This document shows, piece after piece, positions 12,931 through 37,709 of a stretch of DNA of 64,000 bases. Made by a program: the position numbers and the translations under genes. The notes under the pieces are model-generated. The model saw only the letters and a program-made list of their open reading frames with translations, searched no databases and was not told where the DNA came from. Source of the stretch: Escherichia coli (GTDB lineage: Bacteria; Pseudomonadota; Gammaproteobacteria; Enterobacterales; Enterobacteriaceae); assembly GCF_050320075.1 (NCBI RefSeq), contig NZ_CP190018.1. The stretch is one strand, 5' to 3'. The number at the start of each line of letters is the position of its first letter. The first letter of the stretch is position 1.

Positions 12931-13094
12931 AACAAACATTTCTCAACGTCTACTGAAGTCCATCAAATCCACGAATATCAAGCCTTTCAGCCATTTTCAT
13001 AGCTTATTAACGTCTACTCACAACTACCAGAATCTACACACAGAAGTGTATAGTAATGCGTATAGGACAAAATTTATTTTTTGGAGCTATACAC

Positions 13095-14309
13095 ATGCTG
13101 CTTTCAGACCTTGCTATCAGGCGCGCGAAGCCGAAAGAAAAGGCTTATACACTCAATGACGGTAACGGGCTTTCGTTACTCATTGAGCCGAACGGCTCGA
13201 AAGGGTGGCGACTACGTTACAGATTTGCAGGAAAGCCCAAAATGTTGTCGTTGGGCGTGTACCCTGATGTGTCTCTGTCTGATGCCAGAGCGGCAAGGGA
13301 TGAGGCTAAAAGGCTTCTTGCTGGTGGTATAAATCCAAGTGAGGCCAGAAAAGCTCAAAAGCGAGAACAGGCGAGCAAATTTGGCAATACTTTTGAGGGT
13401 ATCGCTCGCGAATGGTATGAAAAGCGGATCGACAGGTGGTCATCGTCATACGCCGAGGAAATGATCGAGACGTTTGAAAAAGACGTTTTTCCGTACATTG
13501 GCGGCAGGCCGATCGCAGAAATTAAGCCAATGGAGTTGCTTGCGGTTCTCTCCCGTCTTAATGACCGTGGGGCGACCGAAAAATTGCGTAAGGTTCGCCA
13601 GCGATGCGGCGAGGTGTTCCGGTACGCAATCATCACCGGACGCGCTGAATATAACCCCGCACCAGATCTGGCAAGCGCATTTGCTCCACACAAAAAAGAG
13701 CATTATGCCTATTTGAAGGCCGACGAACTGCCGGAATTTTTCCGCGTTCTTAATACGTACACCGGAAGCCAGATCGTCAAGCTGGGTATGCGATTATTGA
13801 TTCTGACAGGGCTCCGGCCAGGGGAATTACGACAGGCAGAATGGCAGGAGATCGATTTTGATAATCGTTTGTGGGAAGTGCCTAAAGAACGAATGAAGAT
13901 GCGCCGTCCTCATTGTGTGCCGCTTTCAGAACAGGCGATCGCTATTCTGGAACAGTTAAAACACATGACGGGGCAGTATCAGTTTATTTTCCCTGGTCGA
14001 ATCCAGCACAGTAAGCCGATGAGTGAAATGGCGATGAACGTGCTTATTCGTCGTATTGGCTATTCTGGGCGCGTTACTGGTCATGGGTTCCGGCACACGA
14101 TGAGCACGATTTTACATGAGCAGGGCTATAACACCGCGTGGATAGAAACGCAGCTTGCACACGTTGATAAGAACTCAATTCGTGGCACGTACAATCATGC
14201 GCAATATCTGGACGGGCGGCGCGAGATGCTCCAGTGGTACGCCGACTATATGGACTCACTGGAACAGGGCGGCAACGTGGTGCATGGCAAGTTCGGAAAA
14301 TGTGGATGA
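13095..14309 (+). CDS. tyrosine integrase, P4-type
   Basis: ORF 13056..14309; N-terminal LSDLAIRRAKPKEKAYTLNDGNGLSL and catalytic-domain HGFRHT ... Y residues typical of P4/CP4-57-like integrases. Confidence 0.85.
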   Translation: MLLSDLAIRRAKPKEKAYTLNDGNGLSLLIEPNGSKGWRLRYRFAGKPKMLSLGVYPDVSLSDARAARDEAKRLLAGGINPSEARKAQKREQASKFGNTFEGIAREWYEKRIDRWSSSYAEEMIETFEKDVFPYIGGRPIAEIKPMELLAVLSRLNDRGATEKLRKVRQRCGEVFRYAIITGRAEYNPAPDLASAFAPHKKEHYAYLKADELPEFFRVLNTYTGSQIVKLGMRLLILTGLRPGELRQAEWQEIDFDNRLWEVPKERMKMRRPHCVPLSEQAIAILEQLKHMTGQYQFIFPGRIQHSKPMSEMAMNVLIRRIGYSGRVTGHGFRHTMSTILHEQGYNTAWIETQLAHVDKNSIRGTYNHAQYLDGRREMLQWYADYMDSLEQGGNVVHGKFGKCG

Positions 14310-14431
14310 CTGGTTGAGTATACAGTAGTAGACTTTGAGCGACGAAAGAAAAAGCTGTGTCTAGGGTCGCTCCCGAAAAACCGTATACCTCGACGGGCTG
14401 GCACAGCCACTACAGTAGAGGACGCTGAGGT

Positions 14432-15235
14432 GTGCGTATGATTGATATTCATGCCGAATTAAACGAATACAAAAAAGATTTTATTTCTTTACGTGAATTT
14501 CTTGAGGTCGTGCTTAAGGTCGCTGGTGATGATTATGATGTTTCAGATCTCATAACTTGGATACTCAGGAGAATAAGCGGAGAACATATCCGCCTGTACA
14601 CAGTAAATGAATTTAAGCTGTTGGAATCTTTTTGTAACCCGTATCGGGATGAATTTGATTATGATGTTCTTTATAGAAATCTGGATGCGGTTCGGAAACA
14701 TGGTTGTTTACCTGGTGAGAGGGATGAAAATGGTTTTCTGGTGTCCGGTTATTGGGAAGATCCCGAATTTGAGAACATTGGATTTATAAGGGGTGAAATT
14801 TTCGCAATTTTTCCCGATGTCCTTGACGCGTTAACGAAGCTGGAAGGCGCTAACTCTTCTGAAAATGACGAGGTACAAGGACGCGATATTGAAAAGAAAG
14901 AGTTGCGTACAGAGGATGATTTATTATCCCAAATCGCAATGCTGGAAAGAGAAAACGCAGAGTTAAGGGCAAGGATAGAGCAGTTAGAGCAAGAGCGCCC
15001 GATACACTTATATAAATACTGGGATAAAGACCCATTAGCTAAGGCTATTGAGATTAGAAACAGAGAGTGGGCCAATTACGATCCAGAAAATGATTTTGCC
15101 ACCAGGGGAAATCAAGAAGCGATAACCAGGGAGCTTAAGCAGTGGGGGGCAAGTAATGCTCTTGCAACGCTCATAGAGAGGACTGCCTGCCCTATTAACC
15201 GAGACAACAGCCAAAAGAACGCAAAGCCGGATTAA
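14432..15235 (+). CDS. hypothetical protein (267 aa), acidic with coiled-coil segment
   Basis: Long ORF in AT-rich DNA between int and alpA; heptad-like LSQIAMLERENAELRARIEQLEQE; no family recognised. Confidence 0.5.
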   Translation: MRMIDIHAELNEYKKDFISLREFLEVVLKVAGDDYDVSDLITWILRRISGEHIRLYTVNEFKLLESFCNPYRDEFDYDVLYRNLDAVRKHGCLPGERDENGFLVSGYWEDPEFENIGFIRGEIFAIFPDVLDALTKLEGANSSENDEVQGRDIEKKELRTEDDLLSQIAMLERENAELRARIEQLEQERPIHLYKYWDKDPLAKAIEIRNREWANYDPENDFATRGNQEAITRELKQWGASNALATLIERTACPINRDNSQKNAKPD

Positions 15236-15248
15236 CGCACCATACCGC

Positions 15249-15399
15249 ATACCCTGAGGGTGATTTACTGTTACCCTGAGGGTATTTTTTTATCTTCCCC
15301 GTCAATTTTACCATCACCCTTAGGGTAGATTTCCTCCCGATTACCATCACCCTTAGGGTTAATTTCCTTCCGGTAACCATTAGGCCTGAGGGTATGAAA
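15249..15399. repeat. array of five palindromic ACCCT(G/T)AGGGT motifs (putative regulator binding sites)
   Basis: taccctgagggt x2, catcacccttagggt(a/t) x2 within a 33-bp direct repeat, ggcctgagggta; located just upstream of alpA. Confidence 0.6.
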
Positions 15400-15462
15400 A
15401 TATTCGTTATTTCTGTGCCATGATTACCTCGTCAAATTGAGTAGACGTTATGAGGTAAATAG

Positions 15463-15660
15463 ATGTCAAATACGCTTATTCGTTTAACAGAAGTTCAGCG
15501 TAGAACTGGATATAGCAAGGCATGGATTTATCGCCTTATGGGGCAAGGTAAATTTCCTGCATCAGTTAAAATTGGCTCGCGAGCGATTGCTTTCGTTGAA
15601 AGTGAAATTGACGAATGGATCAATCAGCGTATTGCCGAATCACGCGGAACGGCTGCCTGA
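15463..15660 (+). CDS. alpA: AlpA-family transcriptional regulator / excisionase-like (MerR-type HTH)
   Basis: 65 aa, LTEVQRRTGYSKAWIYRLMGQGKFP motif characteristic of AlpA/phage regulatory protein. Confidence 0.8.
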   Translation: MSNTLIRLTEVQRRTGYSKAWIYRLMGQGKFPASVKIGSRAIAFVESEIDEWINQRIAESRGTAA

Positions 15661-15735
15661 TTAAATAGCTACGGGTTATTGCCCAAGCTATCCACTAGCA
15701 AATAAAAAGTAACTTAATTCGATAGCGGAGTTTTT

Positions 15736-16560
15736 ATGAAACTGCGAAAAACGCCCGTACAGGGGCAGGGCTTTGTTCGGCCTGAAAACCAGAATCTGCA
15801 AAATTTCGGCGAAATTATCCCGGTTATTTCCGGCGTTATTGGCGGGCGTGAAGCCGCTGTTGTTAGCGCAAAAGCGTTACACAAAGCGTTGGGCGTGGGA
15901 AAAGACTTCTCTACATGGATCACTGATCGTATCTCTGAATATGACTTCACCATTGGGTACGATTACTCAGTCCATAAAACAATTTCCCCAAATTTGGGGA
16001 AAAGCCCGAATGGCGAGGCTTACAGCAAGATTAAGCACTCTGGCAGACCCGGTAAAGACTATCTGTTAAGTGTCGGAATGGCGAAAGAACTGGCAATGAT
16101 CGAACGCACCGAACAGGGCCGCGCCGTTCGTCAGTACTTCATCAAATGCGAGGAGGAGCTACACAAAGTAGCGCCAGTGCGTTCCGCAGCGTTACGCCGT
16201 GAACTGAAAGCCCGTATCACCGTTGCCAGCTACTTTAAGCCGATGTGTGCCGCGCTGGAGGCGTACCGCGCTGAACTGGGTAAAAACACGCTCCAGCACC
16301 ACTACACCACGGAAGCCAATATGCTGGCGCGTATCGTGCTGGGTGGCATGACTGCAAAACAGTGGGCGCAGGCGAACGGCATCACAGGCGAACCACGCGA
16401 CCACATGAGCACGCTGCAGCTTGAGCACCTTTCTTACCTTGAGCAGAGCAATATCACGCTGATTGAGTTAGGCCAGGACTACCACCAGCGGAAAGCTGAA
16501 TTAATTCGTCTTTCGCAACGCTGGTTAGCCCGCCGCATGGAGGTGAGCAGCCATGCGTAA
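15736..16560 (+). CDS. phage antirepressor-like protein (KilA-C-like domain), tentative
   Basis: 274 aa; position after alpA and adjacency to a Bro-N gene; domain call is from memory of motif content only. Confidence 0.45.
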   Translation: MKLRKTPVQGQGFVRPENQNLQNFGEIIPVISGVIGGREAAVVSAKALHKALGVGKDFSTWITDRISEYDFTIGYDYSVHKTISPNLGKSPNGEAYSKIKHSGRPGKDYLLSVGMAKELAMIERTEQGRAVRQYFIKCEEELHKVAPVRSAALRRELKARITVASYFKPMCAALEAYRAELGKNTLQHHYTTEANMLARIVLGGMTAKQWAQANGITGEPRDHMSTLQLEHLSYLEQSNITLIELGQDYHQRKAELIRLSQRWLARRMEVSSHA

Positions 16561-17110
16561 ACCTGTCTTTTATGCCGGGCGCACTGAAATCTCTGTCATT
16601 AAATTCGATGACATTCAGGTGCGCATAGTGAGTATCAACGGCGAGCCGTGGTTTGTTGGCGCTGATGTGTGTGCTGCGCTGGAAATCAGCAATGTTACTG
16701 ATGCTGTTTCAGTTCTGGATAACGACGAGGTAATGACCCTAGCTTTAACCGAGGGGCATTCCGGTAAGCGTGGTGGTGCCAGAAGCTGGAATGTTGTCTC
16801 TGAATCAGGTTTCTACAAACTGATCGCCCGCAGCCGTAAAGCTTCCACACCTGGCACATTTGCGCACCGTTTCAGTAACTGGGTATTCCGCGAGGTTATT
16901 CCTTCAATCCGCAAAACGGGGAGTTATGGTGTTCCGTTTGCCATGCTGAATGATTTCAGTAAACGCCAGGCTGCATATCAACAGGAAGCCAGCAAACGCG
17001 GTTACAGGTTACAGCAATGCAAAGAGGCAAAAGATGCACTGGAACGAGAAGAGCGGGCGCTATGGCGTAAATATCAGCCTGATTTTCTGGAGGGTGAAAG
17101 CAATGTGTAA
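16553..17110 (+). CDS. Bro-N domain protein (prophage antirepressor family), tentative
   Basis: 185 aa; N-terminal FxFxxxxVRxxxxxGEPWFV pattern typical of Bro-N; start overlaps previous stop. Confidence 0.5.
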   Translation: MRKPVFYAGRTEISVIKFDDIQVRIVSINGEPWFVGADVCAALEISNVTDAVSVLDNDEVMTLALTEGHSGKRGGARSWNVVSESGFYKLIARSRKASTPGTFAHRFSNWVFREVIPSIRKTGSYGVPFAMLNDFSKRQAAYQQEASKRGYRLQQCKEAKDALEREERALWRKYQPDFLEGESNV

Positions 17111-17278
17111 CGATCCGAACGTTACAGAAAGAAAAAGCGCCCCGTTGCTGGATAACAGGCAAAACAAAGGCGACCGGGATAGGTCGCCAGTGGGAACAAA
17201 GGAAATCAAACGCATCGCCAACAATGCCAGATTTGCGGCTGGTGGGCAATGTGATCAGTGTGCTGGCTTGCTGGTGGG

Positions 17279-17476
17279 CTATTCCTGCTCTTTAGCATCG
17301 CCATACTGCGATGTTTTCCAGGTATGCGATCCCATTTTTGTGCGCCTGTACTCTTTTAAGAACTTCTCAAGGACAAACGCACATGGTGCAAATCTTTCCT
17401 GTTCTTGTTCGCTTACCGCATTTTTGCGTTGTTTTTTCCTGGATGAGGATAATTTCTTTAATGATTTGTCAGTCAT
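17279..17476 (-). CDS. small basic protein, diverged paralogue of the adjacent 65-aa gene
   Basis: 65 aa; shares C-terminal ...AKEQE and upstream nucleotide similarity with 17534..17731. Confidence 0.3.
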   Translation of the reverse strand: MTDKSLKKLSSSRKKQRKNAVSEQEQERFAPCAFVLEKFLKEYRRTKMGSHTWKTSQYGDAKEQE

Positions 17477-17533
17477 CGTAGATACCTGTAACCCTGTGCG
17501 CCACAGTTCACCGCACCACGGCGCTGGTGATGG

Positions 17534-17731
17534 TTACTCCTGCTCTTTGGCCTTCCGGCGCTGTTCATATTTTAATTTGCGTCCACAGGCATCTAAGACC
17601 CATGCGGAAAAATTAGCACTAGGATTAGTTAATTTTTCTTGTTCAACACTGGCATCAATCCCATCTATAAGCTCGTGCGGGAATCGAATATTTTTCTTTG
17701 CTGATTTGTTGTTTGTGTTTCCGCTAGACAT
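17534..17731 (-). CDS. small DNA-binding-like protein (YlcI/YnfO-like, tentative)
   Basis: 65 aa; IRFPHELIDGIDA ... NFSAWVLDAC resembles small prophage regulators as I recall them; divergent from the rightward operon. Confidence 0.45.
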   Translation of the reverse strand: MSSGNTNNKSAKKNIRFPHELIDGIDASVEQEKLTNPSANFSAWVLDACGRKLKYEQRRKAKEQE

Positions 17732-17757
17732 TGGTACACCTCACTTAAATGGATTTG

Positions 17758-17841
17758 ATGGGCGCACACAATACAGCAAAAAAAGTGAGAAGTTAAGTAT
17801 TGACATGTGCGCACACATGATTTTAATCTGTGCGCACAGTT
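17758..17841. promoter_or_regulatory. three (T)GTGCGCACA palindromes overlapping a TTGACA -35 box (operator/promoter region)
   Basis: ggcgcacaca (17761), TTGACAtgtgcgcacacatg (17801), ctgtgcgcacag (17828). Confidence 0.5.
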
Positions 17842-18132
17842 TGGGTTGCATTGCTCAAATTAAGCAACGCCCCGCAGTGCTCGCAACACATGCAGGGCGT
17901 CTAACCACCAACGATAGAAAGCGTATCGAGGTAGCTATGTTAAATCATACCACACACCCGCAAGGGCGGGACTCGCACAACCTGAATAAATACATCTGGC
18001 GTTTTATCGCCCTGAGCACCGCACAACCACGCGTAATACACATCGAGGCCGCCAGCGAACAGGAAGCCCGTCAGCAATCCCCGGCTGGCTGCGTGATGGT
18101 ATTTACTGCCCGCATCCGTCAGGGGGAATACT

Positions 18133-18390
18133 ATGCGTGATGAACGATTTATTCTTCTGGAGCAAAAATTCAGTGAAGCGCCAAAAAATGAAATTGATGC
18201 TCTTTTGCATATCGCGAATATGCTAAAAGTAGCAACGTTCCTTATAGTTTCGAATCTGGAGCATGAAACGGCGTTAGATATACTGAACAGTGCTGTCGAT
18301 TATTCTGAATATATTGCCGAGGATAAATACAGGCAATTACCAGATTTGTTAGCCCATAAATATAAAGAAGAACCTCACACCGGGAAATAA
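18133..18390 (+). CDS. hypothetical protein (85 aa)
   Basis: ORF in operon context upstream of the replication protein. Confidence 0.4.
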   Translation: MRDERFILLEQKFSEAPKNEIDALLHIANMLKVATFLIVSNLEHETALDILNSAVDYSEYIAEDKYRQLPDLLAHKYKEEPHTGK

Positions 18391-18392
18391 AC

Positions 18393-18695
18393 ATGAAGAA
18401 GATTAAATTTACTGGCTTAAATGCCAGCGGACAGACTCACCCGAAAATCAGGATCGGGGATATTTTCCGGGATAAATATGGTGACAGCGTGGTTATTAAT
18501 TCCGTGTATGAACGGCACATTACATACCGCCGCGCAGGGTACGACTATGACTGTGTGATGCCCGTTCATCAGTTCCGGCGTGATTTTTCACTGGTATGTG
18601 CAGTACCACGCAGTAAGCCCACCAGTAAAGAGAAAGCACGGGCAAATATTCAGGTAATAAAGAACATGATTAACGCATTCAGGGGCAAGAAATGA
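18393..18695 (+). CDS. hypothetical protein (100 aa)
   Basis: ORF tightly spaced, its stop overlaps the next start. Confidence 0.4.
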   Translation: MKKIKFTGLNASGQTHPKIRIGDIFRDKYGDSVVINSVYERHITYRRAGYDYDCVMPVHQFRRDFSLVCAVPRSKPTSKEKARANIQVIKNMINAFRGKK

Positions 18696-27645: not shown

Positions 27646-30401
27646 TGAAACAGGCATGTGTTGAAGCTATTGCGCAGACACTTGGTCGCCAGCCAAAGGC
27701 TGATGAGCTGAAAAATATCGAAGATCGTATCAAAGAAGCAGTGCAACATGTGCACAGAAAGAATGCAAAAGAAGGCAAAAGTGGTATTCCTGATGCTCAA
27801 ACATACATGGATGCTGCAGAACTGGTACGCCAGCGTGTGGTTCATGATGTGTACAAGAAAAGACAGCGTGTTGCCCAGAATGCGATCGCCATCAGTAAAA
27901 TTACTGACACTCTCGATGCTAACATCCCGCCTGATCAGCAGACACCTGTTAATTTGCAGCAGTTTATTTTTGCTGGCCGACGATCGAGAGACAAAGCTGA
28001 TATCTCCGTTGCTTCTGCTGAAGAGCTTGCAATTGGGGCATATCAGGACTGGTCCCGTCAGCTCAGTGCTGAACTTCTAAAAGCAGGTGATGACGTCCGC
28101 AAATTCTTCGAGCAGAGCAGGGCGCTTGGAGAGCAGCGGTTTCGGAGTGTATTCGACAGGCAGGCGGCAAAGTCTGCACAACTCCAGATCCTGAAAGAAA
28201 TTTATGGCGAAGATACCGGGAATCCCCTGGCGAAGAAAATTGCACAGATTTGGAAGGATGTAACAGGCCGTGTTCGTCATGAGATGAACGACAACGGCTT
28301 TGACATAGGCCTGCGAGAAGACTGGCATACGCCATATGTGGATGATGCTGACCTTATTCGCAATGCCGGGCGCGAAGAATGGCTGGCATCGTTACCAGTG
28401 GCAGAGCAAGCTACAGCACGTCTTTCAGGTCGCCAGCCACCGATTGAGTTTGCCCGCCAGAAATGGGTTGATGACGCTTACAACACGCAGGATCGCAGCA
28501 ATTACGTTAATCCTGACGGCAGCATTATGAATGACGTCGAGTACCGTCAGGCACTGGAAGCGATCTTTGAAACGAAGGCCACTGATGGGGCAAACAAAAT
28601 TGAGCCCGGTACATTTATGGGAGCCGGAGGAATAAAGAGCCGTGGTTCTCAGCACAGGGGGATGGCGTTCAAGGATGCGCAGTCACACTTCGCCTATATG
28701 GAGCGATACACTCAGCAGCCGCTGGTGGGGGTGATGATGTCGCACCTGCAATCATCATCCAGGGATTTGGGCGTCGTTAAAGCCTTTGGTCCGGACGCCG
28801 AAAGAAACTTTTCCCTGGTACTGGATCGCATCTATAAGCGCGCAGTAACAGGCGGGAAACGCAAAAAAGAAATGGAGGATGAGGCCAAATTAGTAGCCCG
28901 TATGTTCAACTCAATGGCTGGCCTAAATGGTGTCGCTTCATCGAGTGTGTTCTCTTCAGCTGTTGGTGGTCTGCGTAACCTGATGACCAGCGCCATGCTT
29001 GGCACCAGCGTACTGACAGCAACCAGCGACCAGGCAATTATGCGGGCAAATGCGCAGGCGCTGGGCTTTACCCGTGGTGGAATGCGGCTTTCCGTTAACA
29101 CTATCAAAAACCTGTTTAGTGGAGATGCCAAAAAGGCGAATGCTGAACTCGGTCTGCTGGTGGATTCACATGCTGCTGTGGTTTCGAAAATGGGCGGGTT
29201 TGACTTGTCTCGCGGCATAACTGGCTGGTTCGCAGAGAAGACACTGAAGTGGTCCGGGCTGATCGCTATGGACCGCGCAAACAAAGCGTCGTTTGGTCTC
29301 CTGATGTACAAAAACATTGGCGAGCTGACCAGAAAATTTAAGACGCTGGACGATATGAAAGGAACCGATAAAACCATTCTGGCTAACAAGGGATGGAGCA
29401 ATGAGGACTGGGCCATCATGGCAGCGGCAGAACTCAGGCCGATGACTACTGCCGGGCATATGGGGATGACGCCAGACGCGATTTACGCTGTGCCCGATAA
29501 CGTAATCGCCGACATTATGGCAGACCGTATTACCCGGATTCGTGCCGGGAGTGAAAAGGCACTGGCAGCACTTGGAGATCTCCCTCCAGAACGCCTGAAA
29601 CGGATGAAAGAAGCATTCGACGCTGAGGCTGAGCAGACCATCACGCGCATGATTCGTAATGCACGCGCTGAAGCAGCCCATAAATTGCTGGGAATTACGC
29701 ACGGTGAGATGACCAATGCTGTGACCACCGCTACGGGTATTGATACATATGCCCGTGATGATGCTGGCGAGTTAATGAAGAGCTTCATGCTCTTCAAAAC
29801 AACCCCATTTGCTGGATTTCGGCAACTTGTTAACAGAACACGGGATTTGGACACCGTTCCGGCCATTAAATTTCTGGCCTCATATATCGGGGGAACAACT
29901 CTTGCTGGTATGTTTGCGATCCAGATGAACAGTTTGTTAAATGGTAATGATCCGCTGGATATGACAAAACCAACCACATGGGTTCAGGCTTTACTGAAAG
30001 GTGGTTCGTTCGGTATCTACGGTGATTTTATTTTCCAGGACCATACGCAATATGGCTCCAGCATCGGTGCCACTATGGGTGGCCCTGTGTTGAGCTTTGC
30101 AGAGCAGTTAACAAAATTACTGATTACTAACCCACAGAAGGCTCTACAGGGTGAAGAAACATCATTCGGTGCCGATGCACTGAAAACAGCCCGCATGATC
30201 ACCCCATTCGCAAACCTGTGGTATGCGAAAGCGATAACCAATCACCTGATATTGCAACAACTTCAGGAGATGGCAAACCCTGGTTACAATGATCGAGTAA
30301 GGGACCGCGCGCAACGGGAGTTCGACATAACGAGTTGGTGGGAACCGGGTGCTATTGCGCCACGTAGAGCACCGGATTTTGGAAAGGCGGTGGGGAACTG
30401 A
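27645..30401 (+). CDS. large hypothetical protein (about 918 aa)
   Basis: ATG at 27645 overlaps previous stop (TAATG); ORF track 27624..30401. Confidence 0.65.
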   Translation: MKQACVEAIAQTLGRQPKADELKNIEDRIKEAVQHVHRKNAKEGKSGIPDAQTYMDAAELVRQRVVHDVYKKRQRVAQNAIAISKITDTLDANIPPDQQTPVNLQQFIFAGRRSRDKADISVASAEELAIGAYQDWSRQLSAELLKAGDDVRKFFEQSRALGEQRFRSVFDRQAAKSAQLQILKEIYGEDTGNPLAKKIAQIWKDVTGRVRHEMNDNGFDIGLREDWHTPYVDDADLIRNAGREEWLASLPVAEQATARLSGRQPPIEFARQKWVDDAYNTQDRSNYVNPDGSIMNDVEYRQALEAIFETKATDGANKIEPGTFMGAGGIKSRGSQHRGMAFKDAQSHFAYMERYTQQPLVGVMMSHLQSSSRDLGVVKAFGPDAERNFSLVLDRIYKRAVTGGKRKKEMEDEAKLVARMFNSMAGLNGVASSSVFSSAVGGLRNLMTSAMLGTSVLTATSDQAIMRANAQALGFTRGGMRLSVNTIKNLFSGDAKKANAELGLLVDSHAAVVSKMGGFDLSRGITGWFAEKTLKWSGLIAMDRANKASFGLLMYKNIGELTRKFKTLDDMKGTDKTILANKGWSNEDWAIMAAAELRPMTTAGHMGMTPDAIYAVPDNVIADIMADRITRIRAGSEKALAALGDLPPERLKRMKEAFDAEAEQTITRMIRNARAEAAHKLLGITHGEMTNAVTTATGIDTYARDDAGELMKSFMLFKTTPFAGFRQLVNRTRDLDTVPAIKFLASYIGGTTLAGMFAIQMNSLLNGNDPLDMTKPTTWVQALLKGGSFGIYGDFIFQDHTQYGSSIGATMGGPVLSFAEQLTKLLITNPQKALQGEETSFGADALKTARMITPFANLWYAKAITNHLILQQLQEMANPGYNDRVRDRAQREFDITSWWEPGAIAPRRAPDFGKAVGN

Positions 30402-30715
30402 TGACGAGAGATAAAATTGAATATATTGCTTCTCTTAAATATGAAGCTGAGAAATGGAGAAGGATTGGCTGGTGGGGAACATTAATATCACTCTCTGCTT
30501 TACTTATAGACTCCTGGTTCAGACATATTGATGCAGCATCATTACTTTTTGAATCAGCAGTACTTGGTGGATTCATTTGCTGTTGGGGTGGTAATTATGA
30601 TCGGGCGTCCAAACATAAGAGAGAACTTGACGCGATATGTTTTGCTTTATTCGGTAAGGATTACGAAAGTTCTGACCTTGATATAATTGAATTCAACAAA
30701 ACGGAACTATCGTGA
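30401..30715 (+). CDS. small membrane protein (104 aa)
   Basis: Start overlaps previous stop (TGATG); two hydrophobic helices (WWGTLISLSALLI, AVLGGFICCWGG). Confidence 0.5.
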   Translation: MTRDKIEYIASLKYEAEKWRRIGWWGTLISLSALLIDSWFRHIDAASLLFESAVLGGFICCWGGNYDRASKHKRELDAICFALFGKDYESSDLDIIEFNKTELS

Positions 30716-30723
30716 CATGTCAC

Positions 30724-30749
30724 AGGCCGCTTTCGCGGCCTTGTTTTTA
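30724..30749 (+). terminator. intrinsic terminator ending the cargo operon
   Basis: AGGCCGCTTTCGCGGCCT followed by TGTTTTTA. Confidence 0.6.
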
Positions 30750-31417
30750 ACGAATGCCACCGCCGCCCGGGCGGGAATTCGCAGATAAAAAAGCACGCTG
30801 CACGGTTTTATTAATACTTATACCATTAGGATTGATCCTTCAATGGACAATCCTTCCATCGTGTGGCCAGCCATTCATATTCTTTGTCTTTTCTTCAGTA
30901 TCGGCTTTGCATCTTCTACACCCTGAAAGATGTCGTTTTATGGTGTATCTGATGATTTATTCCCTAACAATAGATATTCGAAAAATTAATCAGTTAAAAC
31001 AATTATTTGGATAATTTCAGGTAAAACTATCTTAATCTTCTGGTGGATCTCAATGCGTAGTGACGGTATCGGGATTAAGGGCGTGGATATTCGCGATATA
31101 TGCCGCTACACCCCTCAACAGTAATAGATATGAGCTTTTCACGCTCTCCTTTCACTGCTGAGAACGGCAACAACGTGCCACAGGAACGCGCTGTAATCGA
31201 TTCTGACGCACTTAATTGCGTTGGGTAATGGTTTTTGCCAGCCTGTGGGGGTAACTCTGTTTTATGAGGCTTTGGCTATAGTGCAAAAATACACTTTGTC
31301 TTGCCTCTCAATTTGATGAGACTGGAACGACAACAGGACAGACCACCAGCAACAGTTACCGTATTCAGCCGTTCTGTGGCACCAGTGGAACTATCAACCC
31401 CTGCTTTCAGAAATGTG

Positions 31418-31573
31418 TTTGCGGGTTATTTTGGGGCGTTTGCGGGTTATTTGGGATGTTTTGCGGGTTATGTGATGCTTGAATAATGAACAGTGTATTT
31501 TGCAACATATTGATACTAAAGAACAAAAAATAGTTAGAATACTAAGATAACCCGGTAACCCGCATAACCCGCA
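31418..31573. repeat. iteron cluster 2: three GTTTGCGGGTTAT and three TAACCCG(C/G)A copies flanking an AT-rich spacer
   Basis: gtttgcgggttatt x2, ttttgcgggttatg, then ataacccggtaacccgcataacccgca; same motif as cluster 1. Confidence 0.6.
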
Positions 31574-31978
31574 CTGTTTTGTATATATATACGAAAAATT
31601 GCATTCAGGAGGGGGGGAGCGAAATCCCTACAATCCATTGCTTATGGGACCGCCCGCCTCGTCAAATTTTTACACCCGCGAAATAAAAAAATACTTCACG
31701 CTGGTGGGCATGATGCTGATATGGGAGGCTTCCATAACGCCACCATTCGGAACTATGCAAATCTGCATAGAAAAGGGGATGCCTGATACAATACCCTCGC
31801 CCGATAAAATCACACCGATAAACTCATCTGCCACGAGTAGAAAGAGCGAACGAACCCGATACGCAGTAATGCTTGTCGGGTACAGCTTTTTAAGGCGGCT
31901 GTAGATATCAGGCCATCCGTGATCATCCACCAGCGAGATAGCCGATAACGATGACGCATAACCCTCAAGCGAGGGATA

Positions 31979-32003
31979 AATGTGTATAGAAATGTGTATA
32001 GAA
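31979..32003. repeat. tandem ATGTGTATAGAA repeats (candidate integrase arm-type sites)
   Basis: aatgtgtatagaa-atgtgtatagaa about 58 bp from attR; related gtgtatag / ctatacaca motifs near int at 13040-13092. Confidence 0.35.
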
Positions 32004-32060
32004 TTGATTTTAGAACTCGCAGGATTCGCGCTATTACTGGCCTTGTGTGATGTTGTATTG

Positions 32061-32076
32061 TTCCCTTCGCCCGCTC
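32061..32076. repeat. attR core: 16-bp direct repeat of the tRNA-Gly 3' end, followed by CA (intact CCA context)
   Basis: TTCCCTTCGCCCGCTC identical to 12913..12928. Confidence 0.7.
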
Positions 32077-32575
32077 CAGAATCTCCCCAGGTGGAGAAGA
32101 CTAAAAAAGTCTTCTCTGTCAGCAACTTAAACAGTTACCTATTTAATTTGCTTAGGAGTTCTACCATTGTGATCCGCCCTTAGTAACTGTCACGTTAAGT
32201 TACACGGTGAGATGACAGTATAACCTAACGTTGGCGGCAGTTGCACCTCTCACACCGCGATAGCACAACGTGAAGATAAAGCCCATCCTGGCATTGTAAT
32301 GTCATCGACAGACTGAACACACGCATTTAAGCCCGATGTGCGGCCTTGTGGCTGCGTAAACAGGTTTATGGTGATATTGGTCCTTGCAAACCATATGCAA
32401 GCTCTATCAGCGTTTCAGCCACGCTCCCAACGGGTACACGGTTATCCTGATAAGGTGTGATCTTTCTGACAATCTGATGAAGTCGCTACGCTCCCGCTTG
32501 TTGCTGTATCACCAACGGGGCTTTATGGTTTCTATTGTCTATAATAATCTCACAATTCCCCTGCATGAGGTTGAT

Positions 32576-32782
32576 ATGACTGTTAGCTACAAGATTACTT
32601 ATGAGCATAGAGACGGTGATCAAATTAGAATGGAAGAGGTTTTATTCCATTCAGAGCATGAACCAACAAAAGATGAAATTCATGATGCAGTAAGAAAAGA
32701 TACTGTGAGATTTAATTCTCCATCTAATGGAGTAACGGCTGTTTCAGGGTTTAAAGTGATTTCGGTTGTCCCTGTTCCATGA
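32576..32782 (+). CDS. small hypothetical protein (about 68 aa)
   Basis: ATG at 32576 preceded by GAGG; part of ORF 32384..32782. Confidence 0.35.
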   Translation: MTVSYKITYEHRDGDQIRMEEVLFHSEHEPTKDEIHDAVRKDTVRFNSPSNGVTAVSGFKVISVVPVP

Positions 32783-32815
32783 ATGGTTATAGAAGGGGCT
32801 GGAAGCCCCTAATTA

Positions 32816-33136
32816 TTACTTCTTAATATCGCCAGTGCATTGATATTCGATAGTCACAAGTGTTTGCATACAACCAGATGAAGAAGGTTGTGAACATTGA
32901 GAAGTGAATCCACCAAAAGGCTCGGCTCCTGAATATCCCCAAGCGGCACAACGCGCTTTGGCTGCATTCATGCCTTGTTGTGGATCTACAACAGGGCTTT
33001 CAAACATACCGTAAGAATAACTCATCCTAACTGTGCCGTCTGATTTGCTTCCACCAGTTGGAACGAGTTGTTTTTTTGTTGCACATCCAGAAATAATCAA
33101 TGTTGAAGCAAGTAACAGCATTAAACTTTTGCGCAT
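32816..33136 (-). CDS. putative lipoprotein
   Basis: Signal peptide and lipobox (LIISGCATK); 106 aa with several Cys. Confidence 0.5.
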   Translation of the reverse strand: MRKSLMLLLASTLIISGCATKKQLVPTGGSKSDGTVRMSYSYGMFESPVVDPQQGMNAAKARCAAWGYSGAEPFGGFTSQCSQPSSSGCMQTLVTIEYQCTGDIKK

Positions 33137-33280
33137 GTAAATAATCCCAAGAGATAATGGTTATGTATTGATTTAAAGCGTTTTTAGATTAATGCATTAA
33201 CTTAGCAAAATTAAGTCTTTTCTGATTGTTTGCAGAGTAAAAATGAGTTGCTTTCGAAATTATTTCGGATGTTTATTGTA

Positions 33281-33448
33281 TTACGGTTTTTCAAACCGTC
33301 TAACTATTGTCGCTATTGAATGGGCAATAATAGCAAGAGGATTCATTTCGTCATTGGAGGCAACAAAAAGTCGGTAACTAATAGCCACAACGAATGCAGC
33401 AATAACGAGAAAGCGGATAGTGCTAAGATGTTTTGAAGATAAATGCAT
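33281..33448 (-). CDS. small hydrophobic peptide (55 aa), speculative
   Basis: MHLSSKHLSTIRFLVIAAFVVAISYRLFVASNDEMNPLAIIAHSIATIVRRFEKP; below the ORF-track size cutoff, found by manual translation. Confidence 0.25.
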   Translation of the reverse strand: MHLSSKHLSTIRFLVIAAFVVAISYRLFVASNDEMNPLAIIAHSIATIVRRFEKP

Positions 33449-33788
33449 AACGCCCCCTAAATGAATGTGAGGGGGATTAAATCATGCAAATTTGTTATGT
33501 GCAATACTGGTAATTTATCCTAATAGTCTACTATTCACCTCAATCTACGTCAACCAATATTTGATGTAGATTTAATTTTCTTTTAAAAACAATATGTTGC
33601 AATTTGTTGGATTTTTGGGTTAGGTTGTTTTTTGAACGTTTCCATCAAGTGTAAAGATACGTTTAGCCTTCATAGTGAGTTCAGTTACTGTCTTTTTATC
33701 TGAAATCGGCGCAAACGTGATCATCGCTTAACGAGAAGATCAGCGCCGTCAGGTCCACGCGGCGACAACTCTGAAATATCAGGAGGCA

Positions 33789-34340
33789 TTACGCTTCCTG
33801 CTCTTTCTTGATACGTTGCACCGTCTGTGTGCTGACACTGAAATCTTTTGCTACGCTCCGAATTGATCCACCATTCGCGAGAGCGGCAGCAATTCCTGCT
33901 CGATCAATTGCTTTTCCATTACCACGTTTTGCTATACGTCCAGCGGCCTTAGCTGCGGCGATCCCTTCACGTTGACGCTCAAGCATCATTTCACGTTCCA
34001 TTTGTGCCACTGCTGCAAGCACTGTGAGCATCATATTCCCTGCGGGAGAGTTCTTCCCTGTCTTAAAGTCTTCTTTATGGAAATGCACAGACACGCCGCG
34101 CTCTGTTAATTGCTCAACCGTTGCCAGTAGGTCGGCTGTATTACGGCAAAGTCGATCAATGCTGTGAACATGCAAAACATCACCTTCCCGCACATAGTTC
34201 ATCATTGCCTCAAACTGTGGGCGCTGGGTATTTTTGCCTGACGCTTTATCTTCAAAGACTTTATCAAGAGTTACTCCAGCTAATTGACGGTCTGTGTTTT
34301 GTTGGACAGTCGATACCCTAATGTATCCAATATTAGCCAT
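33789..34340 (-). CDS. serine recombinase (resolvase / DNA-invertase family)
   Basis: N-terminal IGYIRVSTVQQNTDRQ with catalytic Ser; C-terminal HTH; ORF 33789..34346. Confidence 0.8.
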   Translation of the reverse strand: MANIGYIRVSTVQQNTDRQLAGVTLDKVFEDKASGKNTQRPQFEAMMNYVREGDVLHVHSIDRLCRNTADLLATVEQLTERGVSVHFHKEDFKTGKNSPAGNMMLTVLAAVAQMEREMMLERQREGIAAAKAAGRIAKRGNGKAIDRAGIAAALANGGSIRSVAKDFSVSTQTVQRIKKEQEA

Positions 34341-35267
34341 TTTCATTTTCCTTCTGTGTTGATTTGTGTGTAGTGATTATTGATCGTGTTGATTAGGTGT
34401 GTAAAGGACTTTTTTCACTACGAAATTCGAAGGTTTTTAGTGTGGTGATTTAGCCTGCTTTATCACTACACGTCTTGCATGAGAATCATGTAGTTACATT
34501 TTGGTAAAATTAGCAAGCTATTAAATAGTGTGTTTATTTTGAAAAAATAATTTTTTGTTGCATTAAAGGAAACTTGTTCAATAAATGATAGAACGTTTAT
34601 TGAGCAACAATTTTGCAGTGATGCGCTATATGCCGCATTACATAAGGCTTTGCTGATGATAATGTAAAAGTGAAGAAAGCTAACATTGCTCTTTTAAGCT
34701 ACTTTTCATTGAATTTTTAGTATGGAATTACATAGGGATAAACTATGAATATTCTATGATTTACACGAGATATTCTTGCTGTTTAATTCCGGCTTTGGAG
34801 ATCAGGCATTCGCAAGAATACGCTAACGCGTTGCCTGAAAAGCCATTGCACATAATAGAGGTGAGCGTATAGCGAACTATCAATGTGATCATTGCACGAA
34901 TGATAATGAGTGGATATAGATTCTATATATCGTTAGATTGTAGTTTGATAGTTAATGTGTAATGTAGATTGTATGAGCGTATAGCGAATGTTAGTTAGAT
35001 CAACAACAAACTAACCTTTAAATCTCTTTTATCTTCTCATAGATATGGCTATGCGTAGCAACCGAAGGTTAGCCAATCATCTCTATGCAGCCGTAAGGCT
35101 GTTTTGCATGTAATAGTTGTTTGTTGTTGTTAGACAGTTACCAATTTATAGATCAGAGATAGATGTGAGCGTTGAGCGATACACTAATCATAACAACATC
35201 TTCTTACTTTTTAGTTAGTTGTTAGTAGGTTATTGTTATGCGCGCTATTAGCGCATGTATAAAGGTA

Positions 35268-35370
35268 TCATTTTTATCTAAAGGGCTTTAGACATTTTTG
35301 ATACCTTTTTCATCTCTAAAAAAGTGTAATTTTTATCTAAAGGGGCTTTAGACATTTTTTACACCTTTTT
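35268..35370. repeat. two copies of an approximately 42-bp direct repeat
   Basis: atttttatctaaagggctttagacatttttgataccttttt and atttttatctaaaggggctttagacattttttacaccttttt. Confidence 0.6.
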
Positions 35371-35553
35371 CTGTGCAAGACACTTACCAGTGTGCACAAT
35401 ACTTATGCTTTTCTAAAGCCGGGAATTTTTAAGTTTGATTGATCAATTGTTAACTTTAAAAGTTACTTTTAACAATCACTTAGACGATCTAAAGCCGCAA
35501 TTAACATAATATAAGTTGACATGCAAGCACTTTTTACCGTATAGTGCGGGTTT

Positions 35554-35604
35554 CCTACCTACCCAGGAAATGAGTTCCTACCTACCCAGGAAATGAGTTC
35601 CTAC
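35554..35604. repeat. 23-bp tandem repeat, about 2.2 copies
   Basis: cctacctacccaggaaatgagtt x2 followed by partial cctaca. Confidence 0.65.
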
Positions 35605-36701
35605 AATACTATAATTAAACTACAATTAAACTATCTTTTATAAATTCTTTTATCTTTTAAAGAATAATTATAGGGATACCCGTTAGGGAGTCTTCGACTA
35701 TCCCTTAATCTATTGGCATTCGCCAGAACCTTGCACAAGTTAGACTGATGCTTGTCATAACAGATAGTTTTTGTTTTTTGTTAGTAGTTAGCTGATCTAT
35801 GTTCGCTTTCCGCTCACAACGAATATGTAATCTACTATGTGCAAATAGCCTACGGCTTGCGTATGGCTAATAGTCTTGCGCTGTGCGCAGAACGATAATT
35901 AACTAACTACCATCTAACGATTGAAATTTACTTGTGCAATAACCTGAGCATAAGCGAATGGTTGTTAGTGTCTATGCGCTGTGCGCTTCAATAGTTCCAT
36001 TGATGAGGCTTACGCCAATCTAACGATCATCAATCTATTTAAGAGAAAATCTATTGTGCAATACTCTGACGAGTGCAATAACCTTGTGTGCTACGCGTTA
36101 GCGATGTTAGCACATAGACACAGACAACAACCAACAACAAACAAAAAAGAAAGAATGGTTTTAGTAGTTGAAGGTTAAATAAGTTTCTACCGCTTAAATC
36201 AAGCCGTAGGCGAGCTAAACGTATATAAGGTAGGGAAACACTTAGCGGTAATAGATTAGCTCGTTATAGAGCTTCTGAGGAGCTTTACAGGTATTTTATA
36301 AGATGTCTGAAATCAGAGTTTATCTATCCACCATCTTTCCATCATCTGATAAATCAAAAATAAGCCCCTTAAATAAGCCTCTGACGAGATAAACAACCTC
36401 TACATAAGGGAATGTATTGTTTTTATCAAAACCCCCGTCAGAGTGCGATTGAGAGCGTTTTAGACAACAGGGAAGAATTGTACCAGAGTAGGCAGCACAA
36501 AAAGCTAAGAAAAATTATAAGAAATTGAAAATGATCAAGTTTTTTATAAAAGAGGGTTGACAAAGCCGCCGTTATGTAGTATTGTAAGTAGGGAGGGGAG
36601 AAACATCTCTCTCCATCTAAATAATCAAATCACAGAACACTGCACTTTGAGCCGTCAGGCTGCAAGGTGTGTTTTTCTTTTATCTAAATAAGGAGTTTTT
36701 T

Positions 36702-36884
36702 ATGAAATGGTATACACCGGAACACGTCGTAGAGGCATTTAAAAAAGGTGAGCTAACACGACATCAAGTAAGGATGAACAGGAACACAGCGCGGCGCTGT
36801 GGTTATCCAGAGCGTGAAAAATGCTTTGACGATGCACTAAAAATTATTGATGAACTGCGTAAGGCAGAAGCAGAGAAAGAATAA
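36702..36884 (+). CDS. small hypothetical protein (60 aa)
   Basis: ATG with AAGGAG 8 nt upstream; MKWYTPEHVVEAFKKGELTRHQ. Confidence 0.35.
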   Translation: MKWYTPEHVVEAFKKGELTRHQVRMNRNTARRCGYPEREKCFDDALKIIDELRKAEAEKE

Positions 36885-36907
36885 TAACAGGAGAAGGAGA
36901 AAACCAA

Positions 36908-37087
36908 ATGAATATTAATTTTGATTCTGCAACTTATAACGCGTTGTTAAATCGTGCAAAGGCAGAAGGGAAATCAATTCCAAAACTTGTTAATGAATTA
37001 CTAATTACAGTCCTTACAAAGGAGGAACTAAATGAACCAAAACACCAAAACAATTGCCGAAGCAAAAGCGCAATGCCTCAATAAGAA
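36908..37087 (+). CDS. small ribbon-helix-helix-like protein (about 59 aa), tentative
   Basis: Manual translation MNINFDSATYNALLNRAKAEGKSIPKLVNELL; GGAGAAAA upstream. Confidence 0.3.
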
Positions 37088-37697
37088 AGATAGTAAACAA
37101 ACATATGTAGTAGTTGAACAATGGCTGAAGATGTTTAAAAAGTGGTTCTCACCGTCAGGTAAGGAATACACCGCGACACTTCCAGCCGTTGAAATCTACA
37201 GTTACGTAGCTGGGTTCAATGAACAAGGGCAAGAATGTTACGCCAATCAAAAAACATTAGCTAATATTGGAATGGTTAGTGATCGTCAGGTGCGTAATAT
37301 TATAAATATGTTTATTGATATGGGTGTTCTTTCTGTAGAGGCACGGGACGGGCAAACATCACTCTATAAAGCATTACCCTTTACAGATGCACACATCACA
37401 CCACCGGAAGACGTAAAAACCTCTGTAAACGTAGAACAGCCTGCACCTGAAACACAGGAACCGTTAGAAGCGACACACTCTATTGAGCAGGAAACACAGG
37501 CAGAAATCACGGAACAATCTGATCTTTTTACATGGCTTATTTCCATAGACAGCCAAAAGCCTATGCAAGAAGAAACAGAAAATTTTATAAAACGTGCACT
37601 GACCTCGAAGAGGATAATTCTTGAAGATGATGCTTTTAATGCACTGATGATAGCCCTGAGAAAAGAAAGTGAAATCTATGACTCAATACCATTTTAA
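37032..37697 (+). CDS. hypothetical protein (221 aa), possible winged-helix DNA-binding / replication-initiator-like protein with acidic C-terminal half
   Basis: TLANIGMVSDRQVRNIINMFIDMGVL helix-turn-helix-like segment; functional call is weak. Confidence 0.35.
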   Translation: MNQNTKTIAEAKAQCLNKKDSKQTYVVVEQWLKMFKKWFSPSGKEYTATLPAVEIYSYVAGFNEQGQECYANQKTLANIGMVSDRQVRNIINMFIDMGVLSVEARDGQTSLYKALPFTDAHITPPEDVKTSVNVEQPAPETQEPLEATHSIEQETQAEITEQSDLFTWLISIDSQKPMQEETENFIKRALTSKRIILEDDAFNALMIALRKESEIYDSIPF

Positions 37698-37709
37698 GGA
37701 GAATAAAAA

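Follow-up and report, generated by a model that had tools for sequence, protein, structure and literature searches.

A gene-free gap as the probable replication origin and control region of a phage-satellite-like element in Escherichia coli

The replication origins of Staphylococcus aureus pathogenicity islands (SaPIs) and of chromosomal islands inducible by phages (PICIs) consist of iterons that flank an AT-rich region and are bound by the island's own Rep protein. In the PICI-like elements (PLE) of Vibrio, such an origin is also the target of a phage: ICP1 encodes a nuclease, Odn, in which a DNA-binding domain borrowed from PLE RepA_N is fused to a T5orf172 domain, and Odn cuts the PLE origin at its iterons; under the resulting pressure, RepA_N/ori pairs of PLE have been swapped (PMC8263062). 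The present work concerns a gene-free stretch of 2.3 kb (positions 34347-36701, here called the gap) in an integrative element of ~13 kb in the chromosome of Escherichia coli. The window, i.e. the whole stretch of DNA that was analysed, comprises 64,000 nucleotides of contig NZ_CP190018.1 (assembly GCF_050320075.1) and is 100% identical to strain YZLc1-3 (NZ_CP123240.1). All of the evidence is computational, and it leads us to give a probability of roughly 70% to the gap being the cis-acting core, that is the replication origin plus control region, of a phage-satellite-like element.

As in PLE, the proposed origin lies in a non-coding region and carries semi-palindromic iterons, and the iterons covary with the N-terminal domain of the initiator, whose C-terminal domain is common to the variants and shuffled between them. 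As in SaPIs and PICIs, the initiator is encoded by the element, the origin would combine cognate iterons with AT-rich DNA, and the element is integrative, with att sites and an integrase. Indeed, as a sequence feature, an iteron origin inside the non-coding control region of a satellite is already known. In SaPIs and PICIs the origin lies beside or within the pri-rep genes and Rep is a helicase, whereas here Rep is small and lacks a helicase, and the origin would lie more than 1 kb upstream of it; the PICI integrase sits at the att-proximal start beside divergent regulators (stl/str or alpA), whereas here the integrase is at the far end and points inward. Unlike PLE, the host belongs to the Enterobacteriaceae, the phages concerned are Stephanstirmvirinae, a PLE-type function is proposed from sequence alone, and the element encodes its own capsid homologue. 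Pfam RepA_N was not found in the Rep-like protein, which matches HTH_36 (PF13730) instead, its only Pfam match; it would therefore be analogous to PLE RepA and not a member of its sequence family.

The architecture of the gap was derived from the comparison of 25 related loci, the window copy included. It divides into a block linked to the neighbouring recombinase gene, a module A', a variable middle of 0.76-1.57 kb, and a module E'; the middle ends in one of two unrelated right domains, which define Family 1 (the window copy) and Family 2. At the left of the right domain lies a slot that holds the 23-bp tandem repeat of the window, an array that we call M1, and other tandem dyad repeats in other variants (coordinates of all features are given in Table 1). 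The evidence that carries our reading is that the type of repeat in this slot follows the allele of Rep, whose gene lies downstream of the gap. Rep proteins carry four sharply different N-terminal domains (R1-R4) on a common C-terminal domain; among the R1b, R2, R3 and R4b proteins the C-terminal domain is nearly identical and the N-terminal domains differ. When the four repeat motifs were counted in each locus, the cognate repeats were TTCCnA..nAGGAA for R1 (2-3 copies), GTAACG..TTACA for R2 (4-5 copies), ACAGAA..TGTTA for R3 (4-11 copies) and GGTCAnnGTGA for R4 (2-6 copies). The N-terminal allele agrees with the repeat type in 25/25 loci and in 13/13 further loci from IMG/VR (38/38 altogether), non-cognate motifs being absent, present as single 'fossil' copies or forming at most a minority cluster (loci L005 and L011). 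Each of the four alleles is found with Family-1 as well as with Family-2 middles, ~1 kb of which separates the repeats from rep, so that linkage alone does not explain the match; recombination has repeatedly split rep from the repeats, yet the match persists, which is the signature of a functional protein-site pair. A fifth pair is formed by Rep allele R5 and ACCCCTATCAAAACTGAT in 2.3 copies (M5), the sole tandem array of locus L058, again followed by an AT-rich stretch.

This AT-rich neighbourhood is general. The 80 bp directly after the cognate iterons are 76-90% AT in 25/25 loci (mean 84% vs 63% regionally), and in most loci at most a few tens of base pairs separate the last iteron from the start of the most AT-rich 60-mer. 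The window thus combines tandem repeats in the 17-30 bp range, adjoining AT-rich DNA and an initiator that is cognate by covariation only, all of which are marks of iteron origins. From these features we infer that positions 35552-35672 are very probably an iteron-type replication origin, in which the M1 repeats are proposed as the binding sites of the R1-allele Rep. An origin of this type was one of several functions that the first-pass annotation, made from the letters of the window, had listed for the gap, and for the 23-bp repeat it is supported; a partition site, listed beside it, has no support, as no par genes are present. Some related loci have more elaborate arrays. Locus L023 carries 11 iterons (mid region 123-435), and L026 (2233-3289) a tandem duplication of ~160 bp of the iteron and AT-rich region. 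In L005 and L011, three or four different iteron types lie side by side, as if 'fossil' or spare origins had been kept.

The properties of Rep are compatible with a role in initiation. Its PHROG matches are to replication initiation, O-like, DnaD-like and helicase-loader families; searches of PDB and NCBIfam sequences returned no matches. All Rep alleles (P0004, P0010 and P0075 included) end in ..IYDS(I/L)PF or ..DFDIPF, and the window Rep in IYDSIPF. The C-terminal tip of the single-stranded-DNA-binding protein SSB, DDDIPF, recruits many replication and repair proteins, and by analogy the IPF ending is a possible replisome-recruitment motif. In the mechanism that we propose, the winged helix-turn-helix (HTH_36) N-terminal domain of Rep would bind the 23-bp repeats, the duplex would open at the AT-rich stretch beside them, and the C-terminal domain, with its SSB-tail-like IPF, would recruit replication proteins of the host or of a helper. 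The right end of the gap (36340-36701), with its promoter, leader and terminator, would gate the operon for replication and structural proteins, and the leftmost ~250 bp (34347-34589) would belong to the recombinase cassette.

Possible helpers are suggested by phage proteins built from Rep domains. A tblastn search of Rep against 50,697 phage records matched only four virulent coliphages of ~146-151 kb, muut, inny, BI-EHEC and Mt1B1_P17, all of the Stephanstirmvirinae (genera Justusliebigvirus and Phapecoctavirus). Their proteins are 75% identical to Rep residues 30-143; three of them are now labelled 'hypothetical', and the BI-EHEC gene is not annotated. By blastp, each protein (321-367 aa) consists of three parts, two tandem Rep DNA-binding domains and a common C-terminal domain. 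The first domain has been swapped among the phages (R5, R2 and R3) and is 92-100% identical to satellite alleles, and the second is constantly R1-like; R4, the commonest Rep allele in the sample, has no phage-borne copy. The common C-terminal domain matches phrog_681 'endonuclease' at 2e-18 and has 93 diverse homologues with an invariant Tyr, Lys-x-Gly, Arg, Glu and Glu, and 30/41 of its homologues match Pfam MUG113 and 26/41 T5orf172 (E<=0.1). It is a predicted nuclease of GIY-YIG fold; its structure model has a predicted local distance difference test (pLDDT) score of 94, and searches of PDB and NCBIfam sequences with it gave no matches. The M1 iteron array was searched in E. coli phage genomes and was not found.

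As with ICP1 and PLE, a virulent myovirus, here a putative helper, encodes a chimera of a satellite-Rep-like domain and a nuclease of the T5orf172/GIY-YIG superfamily. In contrast to Odn, each coliphage protein has two Rep-derived domains in tandem. One of them is constant (R1-like); the other is swapped and is 92-100% identical to satellite alleles, compared with 42% for Odn. At least five specificity pairs are seen here vs two in PLE. Judged from these comparisons, the two-domain nucleases, the number of specificity pairs and the near-100% identity of phage and satellite domains appear to be new. The structural genes of the element point to the same phages. The only matches of the capsid protein are to the major head proteins of myoviruses that are large (~140-155 kb). 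Escherichia and Klebsiella phages of the Stephanstirmvirinae group head the list, with 24-26% identity along the whole protein, and matches to Pseudomonas phages are also numerous. The C-terminal 380 aa of a 613-aa protein of the element are ~30% identical (E 1e-42) to a structural-module protein in 134 records, almost only from Escherichia and Klebsiella members of the same phage group. Stephanstirmvirinae phages are thus the probable helpers, and their chimeric nucleases would presumably cut iterons, as ICP1 Odn cuts PLE origins. Nuclease pressure would then explain the diversification of iterons and Rep N-terminal domains, which form at least five matched pairs: the phages would repeatedly capture Rep DNA-binding domains, stacking two per nuclease to cut several origin types, and the satellites would escape by exchange of Rep-domain/iteron pairs. 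We put at even odds the broader proposal that these elements (~12-13 kb) form a widespread, hitherto undescribed Enterobacteriaceae satellite family that parasitises Stephanstirmvirinae and is engaged in an arms race over origin iterons.

The gap was described at first as gene-free, AT-rich and packed with repeats. The gap is indeed non-coding: none of the listed RefSeq matches, the 100% identical record among them, has an annotated feature between 34347 and 36701. Eight open reading frames (ORFs) of at least 30 aa lie inside it; five have diverged full-length counterparts, in which they are broken by stops or frameshifts, and three are in variant-specific DNA with no counterpart for comparison. 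The composition was also read correctly, GC being 0.31-0.39 over 34400-36800 vs 0.44-0.49 over the recombinase gene. As to the repeats, the 23-bp tandem repeat is exact (2.3 copies, 100% matches, Tandem Repeats Finder score 106). The direct repeat that had been given as two copies of 42 bp is real, but its unit is 54/55 bp; the copies are 87% identical (self-BLAST E 2e-13) and each is an imperfect palindrome with 23-nt arms. The dispersed motifs that had been listed are present but are individually weak, at chance level (self-BLAST E 0.02-0.7): TGAGCGTATAGCGAA occurs in two exact copies and one degenerate copy, TGCGCTGTGCGC in two copies ~98 bp apart that flank a stretch lacking in some variants, and GTGCAATAACC in two copies. 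Within this sequence alone, then, statistical robustness is limited to two families, the 55-bp and the 23-bp one. That the left half might be an inverted, diverged copy of the right half was ruled out, as self-BLAST gave only short motif-level matches.

At the right end of the gap, control of the rightward small-gene cluster, which had also been listed among its possible functions, is supported by a conserved promoter, leader and terminator at 36557-36683. Module E' is conserved in all 24 distinct sequences of the 25 loci; a 38-aa ORF in it is frameshifted in variants, and the motifs of its upstream part are presumed, from the sequence, to be operator or other regulatory sites. The -35 hexamer of the promoter P2 is invariant, and TAnnnT or AATAAT stands at the same 17-bp spacing in 24/24 sequences despite several spacer alleles. 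The first hairpin of the leader is kept through compensating changes in the 24 sequences. The terminator, which sits just upstream of the ribosome-binding site and the ATG at 36702, retains its hairpin and T-tract in 24/24 sequences, with compensating changes in stems and loops. G-U pairs occur in these stems on the + strand only, as expected for an RNA element. A simple terminator scan did not report this terminator, probably because its stem is bulged, and it was found from the alignment. A promoter scan showed no enrichment over the gap as a whole (9 found vs 12 expected from shuffles), and only P2 and a second site, P1, are trusted because of their score and conservation. Since the Rep/structural operon lies behind a promoter-proximal terminator, antitermination or read-through control is implied. 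Promoter-proximal termination also controls the late operon of lambda (the PR'-tR' gate, 6S RNA) and the P4 PLE/timm immunity region. The likeness consists in a strong conserved promoter with an intrinsic terminator within ~90 nt, before the operon; unlike in those systems, nothing corresponding to Q, nut/put or P4 CI RNA was identified here, and there was no Rfam match. GATC-containing AT-rich palindromes lie at 35437-35480 (TTGATTGATCAATTGTTAAC.., upstream of P1), and a GATC within 36521-36560, just upstream of the P2 -35, is retained in most variants; these could be sites sensitive to Dam/SeqA.

The rest of the gap is a mosaic. Module A' is 77-92% identical in 25/25 loci, whatever the upstream gene, and is matched in several hundred E. 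coli genomes. The core of its TTACAYARGG motif, TACATAAGGG, occurs twice in A' and once more in E', at 36401, and a common binding factor is therefore suggested; module A' is probably a binding site for a conserved factor of the element or of a helper. Block B, to the right of A', is missing from the 24 other loci, where ~200 bp stand in its place and neither strand has a homologue of it, and it is present in 75 genomes. It is nearly identical to the whole region between the recombinase gene and the first gene of L027 (NZ_CP038138.1 939677-945410), and the similarity stops right after P1. Block B is thus a second control region, brought in by recombination from an element of a related type, and the window gap is unusually long because two control regions have been fused by this insertion. 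The junction of block B with the rest of the gap is the left edge of the iteron array, which it truncates. P1, the best promoter match of the gap, travels with block B; in L027 it precedes the first gene, and it is not conserved in variants without block B. L027 itself represents a sister type of element, which shares recombinase, module A' and block B with the window copy but has another replication module (76-aa and 53-aa proteins, followed by a 494-aa DEAD/DEAH-box helicase) and a second promoter of its own, TTGACT-17-TATATT. Only one copy of the 55-bp palindromic unit is present in L027 and in O26 strains. Structural heterogeneity among relatives, which the first-pass annotation had taken as a test of its proposals, does exist as variation in copy number and as gain or loss of blocks (palindromic unit x1 or x2, iterons 2-11, blocks of tens to ~180 bp), but not as inversion.

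The hairpin-rich right domain, of ~0.65 kb, requires separate consideration. It could be that this domain, and perhaps also the hairpin-rich part of block B, encodes one or more long structured non-coding RNAs alongside the origin, with a possible role as replication primer or regulator, processive antiterminator or decoy. The right domain folds below the energy of shuffled sequences (z-scores -2.8 and -3.6 on the + and - strands), its nested hairpins survive double substitutions between alleles (GTGCTA..TAGCAC vs GCGTTA..TAACGC at 36087-36113), and it has gained and lost discrete blocks among variants. The Family-2 right domain is unrelated in sequence but likewise hairpin-rich and non-coding, and its ~0.8 kb are nearly invariant while the flanks diverge to ~75%. 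P1 would transcribe across the right domain, and the downstream leader contains the conserved terminator. These points notwithstanding, we consider such RNAs unlikely, if worth keeping in mind. Rfam 15 covariance models had no match in the gap at gathering score and, at a permissive threshold (E up to 10), only chance-level ones (E 1.6-2.4), with none to the hairpin-rich parts. The left part folds no better than shuffles (z -1.3 and -1.6). In the right domain, alifold finds only 5-6 compensatory pairs, equally good on both strands, the stem mismatches show no strand bias of G-U vs A-C, and the sequences are not diverse enough for covariation to be tested properly. In addition, P1 is missing from most variants that retain the right domain, and hairpins of single-stranded DNA or protein-binding dyads fit this domain equally well. 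The hairpin-rich 0.65-0.8 kb beside the origin may form one more, new cis element, or else a long structured RNA.

A second alternative is purely regulatory: the tandem dyad repeats would be operators of an HTH regulator, here called Rep-like, and the gap a regulatory or silenced spacer. NCBI labels several Rep-like proteins 'transcriptional regulator' or 'helix-turn-helix domain-containing', the HTH domain is all that Pfam recognises in Rep, and each repeat unit is an operator-like dyad. This alternative is nevertheless improbable, for the repeats are 1.0-1.5 kb from the promoter of Rep, with freely recombining DNA in between, and they always adjoin a stretch of 80-90% AT that an operator does not need. 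The PHROG matches of Rep to initiators and helicase loaders, and its conserved C-terminal domain with the SSB-tip-like IPF end, argue in the same direction, as does the parallel with the experimentally proven RepA/ori module of PLE, in which a variable N-terminal and a conserved C-terminal domain also go with matching repeats.

The serine recombinase gene directly borders the gap, as the first-pass annotation had stated, and from this adjacency an invertible switch or a res site had been proposed. The recombinase might flip a segment of the gap as a promoter switch, or resolve multimers at a res site, and thus switch the rightward genes. Small recombinases beside invertible DNA are indeed found in the Hin/Gin/Cin/Pin segments and in fimS-type switches, and the locus resembles them in having a small recombinase gene, here Hin/Gin-like, next to non-coding DNA with inverted repeats. 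In related loci the same slot is occupied by a tyrosine recombinase of 186-192 aa, the size of FimB (L026, L028 and L058), or by an unrelated 183-aa protein (L003 and L020). Inverted repeats exist, for example that at 35716-35738/36054-36076, which in L020, L021 and L023 spans 34 nt at 88%. A cluster of TGTAGTGAT-type motifs adjoins the recombinase gene, at 34369(+), 34441(+) and 34462(-), i.e. three of the 21 matches of the 64-kb window within 180 bp. A small res-like site is therefore possible within 34347-34589; BLAST alignments continue from the recombinase gene into this block only where the locus has the serine recombinase, and the block presumably holds the recombinase promoter and 5' untranslated region. 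The three TGTAGTGAT-like half-sites within 34369-34470 do not show a clear Tn3/gamma-delta three-subsite architecture, and multimer resolution at a site in 34347-34589 would account for only ~10% of the gap. No convincing pair of 26-bp hix/gix-like sites was identified in the gap on reading the sequence. No inverted segment was found among the 25 loci compared all-against-all, and a query in which the segment 35739-36053, between the best conserved inverted repeats, had been flipped matched 0/351 genomes at >=80% coverage. Its best matches were the two flanks alone (59%), and the listed partial-coverage matches span less than the query range, as expected for indels and not for inversions. Unlike in the Hin/Gin and fimS switches, then, both orientations were never seen, and the recombinase is dispensable for the presence of the gap, which some loci without a recombinase in the slot still keep. 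We regard a switching or resolving function as the explanation of the gap as slightly less probable than the operators. That the gap is decayed genes or neutral junk kept as H-NS-silenced AT-rich DNA, as its AT-rich, ORF-free character and the highly variable length between A' and E' (0.76-1.57 kb) might suggest, is hardly credible in view of the conservation of both modules in every locus, the near-invariance of the ~0.8-kb Family-2 right domain despite flanks that diverge to ~75%, the selection implied by repeat/allele coupling, and indels that are not codon-like and leave no ORF remnants in common.

Several points weigh against the gap being a satellite origin and control region. We infer, and do not observe, Rep binding, replication, excision, helper dependence and cleavage. 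Rep matches HTH_36 weakly (2e-4) and the PHROG initiators modestly (7e-6), and neither a helicase nor a primase domain is present in it; it could be a transcription factor with the repeats as operators. The window array has only two full dyads and is truncated by block B, and this origin might therefore be impaired. The right domain and most of block B lie outside the assigned functions, which means that origin and control together cover well under half of the 2.3 kb. With regard to the phages, the capsid protein resembles its counterparts in the proposed helper group only remotely (about 25%). The comparisons do not establish which way domains moved between phage and satellite or what the phage nucleases cut, and these proteins could instead be homing endonucleases directed at other targets. 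Finally, no satellite of Stephanstirmvirinae and no Odn-like coliphage nuclease was found described in the literature searched (open-access papers and bioRxiv); a prior description is possible.

The genetic organization of the element and its distribution are as follows. Two islands are integrated in tandem at glyU; an exact 16-nt copy of the 3' portion of the tRNA-Gly gene at 32061-32076 forms their junction and the start of the second element, which contains the gap, and no matching repeat was seen at the far (integrase/IS1) end of the latter. The first island (~13000-32060) is separate from this element. Its replication module is P4-like (int-alpA RNA, primase-like DUF927 protein, SSB and ProQ/FinO), and it encodes three adjacent large hypothetical proteins (843, 686 and 918 aa), which look like uncharacterised cargo or a defence module, followed by a 104-aa protein. 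The second element consists, in order, of small genes, the serine recombinase gene (-), the 2.3-kb gap, the rightward operon (60-aa and 58-aa proteins, the 221-aa Rep-like protein and small genes), a second gap, a 342-aa HK97-type capsid homologue, the 613-aa structural homologue and the integrase. It has no primase/helicase, terminase, portal, protease or psu/sid; its own set is a small HTH Rep, a single capsid homologue, the 613-aa protein and a distal integrase. Satellite families are commonly recognized, as in SatelliteFinder, by markers such as psu/delta/sid/alpha for P4, int-alpA-pri/rep for PICIs, a full head module for capsid-forming PICIs (cfPICIs) and PLE-specific genes. None of the marker genes of P4-like, PICI, cfPICI or PLE satellites, taking these sets as they are generally known, was found in the element. 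The second gene-free gap (39452-40331, ~0.9 kb) lies just upstream of the capsid module, and its position is kept in relatives (~0.75-1 kb). It contains a promoter-like TTGACT-17-TAGAAT at ~39473 and hairpin plus T-tract terminators at ~39720-39752 and ~40256-40292, features that point to two RNAs of small or medium size; it has no Rfam match. In the chromosomal flank, and unrelated to the gap, Rfam identifies the Hfq-binding small RNA STnc490 at 61096-61219 (143.9 bits).

DNA of the gap is matched in 713/5426 complete E. coli genomes (~13%), with a full-length match in 38. The same layout is found in E. coli at glyU, thrW, a tRNA-Leu gene and the thiM riboswitch, and the same synteny in L058, a relative whose Rep is named by NCBI from Klebsiella michiganensis; gene-free DNA of 1.3-3 kb fills the slot of the gap in every related locus compared. 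The Sp1/Sp2 elements at thrW in strain Sakai were considered as the same element and turned out to be different ones. Nucleotide searches with the gap gave no similarity in the phage collection and two E. coli matches in the plasmid collection. One of the latter, NZ_CP134663.1, is a 4.9-Mb record and evidently a chromosome filed as a plasmid.

Table 1. Location of the features discussed; positions are those of the window unless a phage locus is named.
Feature	Position	Strand	Description
tRNA-Gly(CCC)	12857-12928		glyU site; two islands in tandem at this tRNA
int-alpA RNA	14354		Rfam; belongs to first island
Integrative element containing the gap	about 32077-45500		~13 kb, integrated at glyU
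Serine recombinase gene	33789-34346	-	accessory, swappable slot; phrog_125 DNA invertase, 6e-62
Recombinase-proximal block	34347-34589		inherited together with the serine recombinase gene
Module A'	34590-34766	+	universal non-coding block; two TTACAYARGG motifs (34638, 34728)
Block B	34767-35548		second control region, acquired by recombination
Hairpin-rich part of block B	34800-35250		
Two 55-bp palindromic units in block B	35258-35311, 35317-35371		
AT-rich palindromes in block B	35424-35480		
Promoter-like site P1	35516-35545	+	TTGACA-18-TATAGT, 11/12 matches; points into the iterons
Iteron array, type M1	35552-35604		23-bp unit x2.3: two full AGGAAATGAGTTCCT dyads and a half site
AT-rich stretch	35605-35672		82% AT, 11-bp x2.4 repeat; proposed DNA-unwinding element
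Hairpin-rich right domain	35673-36339		nested dyads, repeated TGTGCAATA-type motifs
Long-range complementary arms	35716-35738/36054-36076; 35768-35802/36112-36147		
Stretch between TGCGCTGTGCGC copies	35922-36017		~98 bp; missing from L002 and L003
Module E', upstream part	36340-36556	+	TACATAAGGGAATGTA and tandem CGTTTTAGA motifs
Promoter P2 of the rightward operon	36557-36585	+	TTGACA-17-TATTGT
Leader with first hairpin and intrinsic terminator	36592-36683	+	~90 nt; terminator stem 36642-36670, T-tract 36672-36683
Rep-like initiator gene, allele R1	37032-37697	+	221 aa; outside the gap, 1.4 kb downstream of the iterons
Tyrosine integrase	about 44280-45455		inward-pointing, distal end of the element
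muut_154	L054:2135-3130		R5 (100% over 123 aa) + R1 (86-89%) + common C-terminal domain
inny_184	L057:324-1427		R2 (92%) + R1 (86-89%) + common C-terminal domain
Mt1B1_P17 protein	L055:447-1433		R3 (100% over 95 aa) + R1 (83-85%) + common C-terminal domain
BI-EHEC protein	L056, unannotated ORF		R3 (93%) + R1 (85-90%) + common C-terminal domain

For annotation, the findings account for a large intergenic block that looks 'empty' and recurs in hundreds of E. coli genomes, and they flag proteins now labelled 'HTH domain-containing' or 'hypothetical'. If the conservative part alone holds, the gap is an ordinary origin plus control region of a defective mobile element. If the whole reading is true, E. 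coli would possess a counterpart of the Vibrio PLE-ICP1 system, present in about one genome in eight and directed against large virulent phages of the phi92/rV5 group, and the phage-borne, origin-directed nucleases would reveal which origins they attack. Stephanstirmvirinae (phi92/rV5-like) phages are widely used in therapy cocktails. Strains bearing the element may abort phages that lack the matching nuclease, which would bear on host range and on failures of phage therapy. Rep domain, iteron and phage nuclease domain would then form a specificity code that can be read from sequence, and DNA-binding specificities would be traded between parasites and hyperparasites.

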